Positions 31,326 to 31,371 of a DNA stretch of 64,000 bases are shown here, piece after piece. How positions within the stretch are numbered: position 1 is the stretch's first letter; every line of letters starts with the position of its first letter. The position numbers and the translations under genes are program-made. The notes beneath the pieces are model-generated. The model was not told where the DNA came from. It made no database searches and saw only the letters and a program-made list of their open reading frames with translations. This stretch comes from Escherichia coli O127:H6 str. E2348/69 (GTDB taxonomy: Bacteria > Pseudomonadota > Gammaproteobacteria > Enterobacterales > Enterobacteriaceae): the NCBI RefSeq assembly GCF_000026545.1, contig NC_011601.1, one strand, 5' to 3'.

Positions 31326-31334
31326 TTCTGATTT

Positions 31335-31368
31335 GTTACGTTAAACGCCTGTCATCCCGACAGGTGTT
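31335..31368. terminator. bidirectional terminator between convergent ydjN and cedA
   Basis: gcctgtcatcccgacaggtgttttttt hairpin with flanking T/A runs. Confidence 0.6.
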
Positions 31369-31371
31369 TTT

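Follow-up and report, generated by a model that had tools for sequence, protein, structure and literature searches.

The short spacer between tcyP and cedA in Escherichia coli O127:H6 str. E2348/69 is very probably the ancestral state of this locus, and ydjO, the gene found at this position in E. coli K-12, would accordingly have been gained in other lineages, not lost from this one. The stretch of E2348/69 DNA that was analyzed (64,000 nucleotides of contig NC_011601.1, referred to as the window) was compared with the K-12 locus, with the corresponding loci of related species and with a set of complete E. coli genomes. According to the scenario that we propose, the window keeps the ancestral layout, with tcyP and cedA in convergent orientation and a single spacer containing a hairpin and a T-tract that would end the transcription of tcyP. 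In the line of descent of K-12 and of about 78% of sequenced E. coli, an AT-rich segment of about 1.1 kb would have replaced this spacer together with the last seven or so codons of cedA. The incoming segment would have brought in ydjO, an orphan gene, with the region upstream of it, hairpins of its own and a variant 3' end of cedA.

The tcyP-cedA junction in the window and in K-12

In the window, the gene tcyP (ydjN), which was identified by its open reading frame, by Pfam (SDF symporter, E=3e-106) and by the annotation, covers positions 29934-31325 on the plus strand, encodes a cystine/sulfocysteine:cation symporter of 463 amino acids and ends with a TAA stop codon at 31323-31325. The name tcyP is used in the annotations of both E2348/69 and K-12. 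The gene for the cell division activator, cedA, was identified by the same three means (Pfam, E=8e-46) and is located on the minus strand at 31372-31635, with a stop codon that reads TTA on the plus strand (31372-31374). The CedA protein is 87 amino acids long according to the E2348/69 annotation and 80 amino acids long if counted from the start codon used in K-12 (31372-31614). The katE gene for catalase HPII (31818-34079, plus strand; open reading frame and annotation) is divergent from cedA and served as a synteny anchor, this arrangement being kept in most outgroup loci. The spacer between the two convergent stop codons (31326-31371) is exactly 46 bp long as read from the sequence and the reading frames, as had been estimated in a preliminary description of the window. 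That description also considered ydjO to be absent from the strain, in agreement with which neither tblastn nor blastn identified any ydjO sequence in the window.

The gene order in MG1655 is tcyP (b1729), ydjO (b1730), cedA (b1731) and katE (b1732), with ydjO (804 bp) located on the minus strand, the strand of cedA. The presence of ydjO between these genes in K-12 had been stated in the same description and is borne out by the MG1655 annotation. The distance between the stop codons of tcyP and cedA is 1,095 bp in K-12, ydjO included, as compared to 46 bp in the window; an identical spacing in the two strains, the observation that would have spoken against a difference at this locus, was thus not found.

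The flanks contain the same genes in the same orientations in both strains, with 97-98% nucleotide identity (97.3% for tcyP). The blastn homology breaks off at positions 31329 and 31390 of the window, corresponding to positions 3830 and 4940 of the K-12 locus (L001), of which the left break is located four bases beyond the tcyP stop codon and the right break within cedA. Between these breaks, the window contains 60 bp without a BLAST-alignable counterpart in K-12 (31330-31389), while K-12 contains 1,109 bp (L001 3831-4939) that include ydjO together with 288 bp upstream of it and a cedA 3' end of divergent sequence. The G+C content of the K-12-specific segment is 27-38%, as compared to about 48-59% in the flanks. 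The suggestion that the strain carries an indel here holds insofar as ydjO is present in one strain and absent from the other; the difference is a replacement of 60 bp versus 1,109 bp that reaches into cedA, and the change itself is to be placed in other lineages, where ydjO would have been added to the ancestral short form.

The cedA 3' end is allele-specific. In the comparison with K-12, 11 differences were found in the last 28 nucleotides of the gene (31372-31399, minus strand), as compared to only four in the remaining 215. The C-terminus of CedA reads ...QENEVEE in the window and ...QEGEVTE in K-12, and the two versions have different distributions: the end found in the window is shared with Escherichia species that lack ydjO, and the end found in K-12 is shared with E. 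albertii (GEVAE) and with Escherichia sp. MOD1-EC7003. The QENE-type end is present in Salmonella, Citrobacter and the Escherichia species without ydjO and is taken as ancestral. The gained ydjO segment would thus also have exchanged the end of the cedA reading frame, and the existence of two natural C-termini of CedA would be a by-product of the gain of ydjO.

The K-12 segment shows the features of a horizontally acquired islet, namely an atypical G+C content, a patchy distribution and absence from the outgroups. An origin by insertion of a mobile element was considered and rejected, since no terminal repeats, target-site duplication, transposase or integrase were identified: there are no direct or inverted repeats at the borders of the segment (L001 3830/4940) and no duplication of the target, and no mobility gene was found inside it. 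A comparable class in the E. coli accessory genome is that of small islets that are AT-rich and carry an orphan gene. The locus resembles the ynjI islet of K-12 (gdhA-topB) in that a single gene is present or absent at a pair of convergent genes, but ynjI is another gene at another site.

Several other differences from K-12 were observed in the window. The ynjI gene (b1762) is also missing; the gap between gdhA (60118-61461, plus strand) and topB (61538-63520, minus strand), at 61462-61563, measures 100 bp here as compared to 1,308 bp in K-12 and holds a REP-like palindrome (tgccggatac...ccttatccggcc). The spacer between the convergent genes katE and chbG (34070-34118) is 49 bp long, as compared to 261 bp in K-12. 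Nothing in the K-12 region 1,775,000-1,852,000 corresponds to positions 1-15094, and the two genomes are collinear from position 15095, beside ihfA. In the E2348/69 annotation, positions 1-15094 correspond to a P2-like prophage (with genes for tail sheath, tube, tape measure, gpD, Ogr/Delta and baseplate proteins) and a Hok/Gef gene, inserted beside ihfA. At about position 23756, between thrS and yniD, K-12 is 863 bp longer, inside the arpB pseudogene, and the E2348/69 annotation places a frameshifted and truncated pseudogene for a type III effector of the ShET2/EspL2 family at this site.

A predicted terminator between the convergent stop codons

The spacer in the window contains a hairpin followed by a T-tract (31343-31373, plus strand), which was identified by a terminator scan, RNA folding and conservation. 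The stem begins 17 nucleotides past the tcyP stop codon and consists of 11 base pairs (31343-31353 with 31359-31369), including five G-C pairs and one G.U wobble (G31347.T31365), closed by the five-nucleotide loop ATCCC (31354-31358). It is adjoined by a tract of seven T (31367-31373), of which the first three are the partners of A31343-31345 in the extended stem of 11 bp, and the last two are located inside the cedA stop codon. The RNA of the plus strand folds with -15.8 kcal/mol (z = -4.3), and none of 200 shuffled sequences folded as well; the corresponding values for the minus strand are -12.8 kcal/mol and z = -3.3.

A terminator-like pattern by itself is nothing out of the ordinary: one was found in the 900 bp that were scanned, as compared to 1.1 expected from shuffled sequences, and the case for a function is therefore made by the position of the hairpin between the two stop codons and by its conservation, equivalents of the hairpin and T-tract being present in the spacers of most of the 77 related loci. 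With a G+C-rich stem-loop, an adjoining U tract and a conserved position after a stop codon, the element has the features of a rho-independent terminator, and it makes a convincing predicted Rho-independent terminator for tcyP. No Rfam family matched positions 31000-32000 at E-values up to 1, and a search for a second copy of the hairpin, as would be expected from a REP-like repeat family, gave no match within the window.

In the direction of cedA, the stem is followed by UUUAACG, that is by only three U, which correspond to the AAA (31343-31345) in front of the stem, and the scan of the 900 bp gave a call on the plus strand only. The hairpin may nevertheless end cedA transcription on the opposite strand, weakly or partially. 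The preliminary description had called this element a bidirectional hairpin terminator, of which the tcyP side, with its stem and T7 tract, stands, while the cedA side is weak. Bidirectional use of the hairpin in Escherichia is considered uncertain, because the A-tract has been eroded to three or four A in this genus. Terminators that act in both directions between convergent genes have been described in E. coli (bioRxiv 10.1101/2022.10.23.513370). The element in the window resembles such bidirectional intrinsic terminators in being a single G+C-rich hairpin between convergent stop codons, but differs in that its A-tract is only three nucleotides long.

In K-12, the predicted terminator of tcyP is a different hairpin (-22.4 kcal/mol), which is located inside the 3' coding end of ydjO, so that each haplotype brings its own tcyP terminator. 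The hairpins of the K-12 locus differ from the single one in the spacer of the window.

Related species, allele frequencies and the direction of change

We scanned related species for CedA with one genome per species, which returned 80 loci, 77 of which contained both tcyP and cedA. The 80 loci do not include E. fergusonii, E. marmotae (by name) or the E. coli species representative, and the sampling of the genus is therefore incomplete. Of the 77 Enterobacteriaceae loci, 69 had a spacer between tcyP and cedA that did not exceed 142 bp (median 63 bp); ydjO was missing from all of these 69, and in total from 75 of the 77. Most of the outgroup spacers carry a symmetric element, in which a G+C hairpin is preceded by seven or eight A and followed by seven or eight T. 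An A-tract, hairpin and T-tract in this order make up the textbook bidirectional terminator.

The tcyP-cedA spacer appears to be a recurrent landing place for cargo. An IS3-type element with rve domains is located in the spacer of Enterobacter wuhouensis (L029 5836-7333), genes for a LysR regulator and a DJ-1/PfpI protein in that of Kosakonia sacchari (L075 6235-8158), and an addiction-module antidote gene in that of Siccibacter colletis (L078 6229-7139).

Within Escherichia, spacers of 45-47 bp without ydjO were found in E. whittamii and three other species-level genomes (E. whittamii Sa2BVA5, L003; SCPM-O-B-8794; E69, L005; E1V33), in all four of which CedA ends with NEVEE or NEIEE. The hairpin CGCCTGTC-ATCCC-GACAGGCG, with the stem and loop seen in the window, is present in L003 and in two of the other genomes (L004 and L006), and the same stem with another loop in L005. 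Compared to these spacers, the window has a T that has replaced a C in the 3' arm, giving rise to the G.U pair, three A in front of the stem instead of four, and a diverged sequence 5' of the hairpin.

Since the short spacer and its hairpin are common to the outgroups that lack ydjO, they are best read as inherited sequence, and a deletion of ydjO could not have regenerated a spacer similar to those of the outgroups, which argues that the gene was gained elsewhere. We consider it very unlikely that an ancestor of the strain possessed ydjO and that the gene was then cleanly deleted so as to leave tcyP and cedA adjacent. The gene is indeed present in K-12 and in 78% of the genomes, and losses of ydjO do occur, as seen from an 893-bp deletion in Escherichia sp. 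MOD1-EC7003 (L002) and an IS5-associated truncation in strain TUM14664. Against a clean deletion, 42-60 bp of the window are absent from K-12, as in a replacement, the spacer is homologous to those of the ydjO-less Escherichia species, the hairpin included, the window contains no remnant of ydjO, and its cedA gene has the ancestral end (QENE type).

The locus of MOD1-EC7003 (L002 6241-6434) represents a third allele, in which the junctions and the cedA end of the K-12 type have been kept. Here, the 893 bp have been lost between 12-bp direct repeats, AA[C/T]AGATCGTCA, and the last 32 codons of ydjO remain. As this case shows, a true deletion of ydjO looks unlike the junction in the window.

We surveyed the two alleles in 5,426 complete E. 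coli genomes. The short allele was identified in 1,129 genomes by a contiguous match to a 1,046-bp query across the junction, and in 1,123 by a full match to a 130-bp junction query. The ydjO allele of the K-12 type was identified in 4,243 genomes, with a coverage of 80% or more of the K-12 allele, and the remaining genomes, about 60, were in other states. The shares are thus about 21% for the short allele and about 78% for the ydjO allele, in line with the earlier view of a strain-variable locus and not a novel element. The presence or absence of ydjO is a known difference between strains, of an ordinary kind, in a region that is well annotated. With the same or a near-identical junction in 1,123 complete genomes, an error of assembly or sampling in one sequence can be given practically no weight as an explanation of the short junction.

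Genomes with the short allele include E2348/69, 536, IHE3034, the type strain DSM 30083 (= ATCC 11775) and an O6:K2:H1 strain, and the short-allele strains that we recognized among the matches listed are all, presumably, members of phylogroup B2. Carriers of ydjO include K-12, B, O157:H7 and an ST648 strain, which we take to belong to phylogroup F. In the short-allele genomes, the K-12 allele query matched only about 50 bp of tcyP, and ydjO is therefore not located elsewhere in these genomes. In TUM14664, most of the ydjO gene has been replaced by an IS5-family element; in strain C21, an IS1 has been inserted into the gene, and this strain was counted among the 4,243 carriers because the search joins both halves of the interrupted gene.

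The distribution of the two haplotypes argues against a clean single gain. E. coli 21F61 from river water (L086) has the short allele, with a spacer that differs by one nucleotide from that of the window, although its tcyP gene is 99.1% identical to that of the ST648 strain, which has ydjO, and 97.8% identical to that of the window. The short allele, to judge by this genome, is not confined to one clonal background. A gain that happened cleanly and once, on one branch, does not account for this pattern, and one has to assume recombination or more than one replacement. A second observation against a simple gain is that the early-branching E. albertii has a ydjO-like gene. In E. albertii NBRC 107761 (L011 6403-6798), a divergent ydjO-like open reading frame is located directly downstream of cedA. 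It comprises at least 132 codons, the contig ending inside the frame, and its product is 38-39% identical to YdjO, with which it shares the motifs FISTG, FNYMIA and (R/K)N(K/R)LVI; in the protein search, the E. albertii protein was represented by one 79-residue fragment. Since E. albertii has both a K-12-like cedA end and a ydjO-like gene, the ydjO haplotype is taken to be old and common to more than one species.

These observations could be accommodated by a single gain of ydjO with later exchange, or by a long-standing polymorphism, and ydjO may already have existed in the ancestor of the genus, in which case the short allele would have survived beside it as a polymorphism. Homologous recombination through the tcyP and cedA flanks is the most likely route by which the ydjO haplotype would have moved between Escherichia lineages. 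Tentatively, and with somewhat less than even confidence, the locus may be viewed as an old trans-species dimorphism in Escherichia, with the terminator alone in one haplotype and ydjO plus the variant cedA end in the other. The short haplotype would then belong to E. coli of the B2 type and to several further species of Escherichia, and the ydjO haplotype to most E. coli and to E. albertii, with a deletion derivative in MOD1-EC7003. The two haplotypes would have been kept or shuffled by recombination via the flanks, possibly through a niche-dependent benefit or cost of ydjO.

It is also conceivable, but improbable, that the B2 lineage lost ydjO and regained the short allele by recombination with another Escherichia lineage. 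The distribution of the haplotypes is not that of a simple split, as seen from the presence of ydjO in ST648 and of the short allele in 21F61 with its F-like tcyP, and the jump in divergence within cedA (4/215 versus 11/28) resembles a recombination breakpoint. Such a breakpoint is equally explained by an import of the ydjO haplotype into other lineages. Moreover, roughly one fifth of the positions in the spacer of the window are different in the other Escherichia species (manual count), and the cedA gene of the window differs from theirs by about 10%, which argues against a recent import from any of the sampled donors. A gain of ydjO in other lineages, with inheritance of the short spacer in this one, is the reading that we prefer.

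The YdjO protein and its use as a marker

YdjO is an apparent orphan that is essentially found only in Escherichia. No family match was obtained for YdjO in Pfam, NCBIfam, PADLOC or PHROGs. A word-indexed search of 5.8 billion proteins returned only E. coli proteins, and a HMMER search of 1.84 billion representative proteins returned only fragments of ydjO and one further protein, P0034. This protein, of 299 amino acids, is 26% identical to residues 12-266 of YdjO and differs from it by systematic replacements of I by V, K by R, and N by G or S. P0034 was considered as a natural relative of YdjO and rejected, since its composition suggests a copy of ydjO recoded from A to G; it probably derives from an artefactual or chemically converted dataset and was treated as an artefact. 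An E. coli variant of YdjO, P0006, is 76% identical to YdjO, with a diverged sequence over the first 175 or so residues and an almost identical sequence over the last 90 or so, which suggests a mosaic allele generated by recombination inside ydjO. Prediction with AlphaFold2 from an alignment of seven YdjO sequences gave a poor model (pLDDT 60.6, pTM 0.47), and a Foldseek search with this model against the PDB gave no credible match (best E 0.017, TM about 0.15). The intergenic region between ydjO and cedA has been listed among the AT-rich “promoter islands” of K-12 (PMC3661553). A literature search for “b1730” retrieved only unrelated papers.

The ydjO gene has been promoted as a “conserved signature” of E. 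coli and Shigella and as a target for qPCR, and YdjO was stated to be exclusive to these taxa (PMC11057252). The putative ydjO-like gene of E. albertii contradicts this exclusivity. In the window, no site for the ydjO primers and probe was found within four mismatches, except for one chance match of one primer with four mismatches. Since about 21% of the complete genomes lack ydjO, the assay (PMC11057252) would under-count such strains. A corollary of the view of an old dimorphism, if it is true, is that ydjO does not qualify as a conserved signature of E. coli. About one fifth of the strains would escape a qPCR assay for ydjO, among them the type strain and the main extraintestinal pathogenic lineages of humans.

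For genome biology at large the importance of the locus is small, as it concerns a routine one-gene difference with a standard layout and a standard terminator. K-12 would nevertheless represent the derived state here, and it follows that the absence of K-12 genes from B2 strains should not be interpreted as loss.
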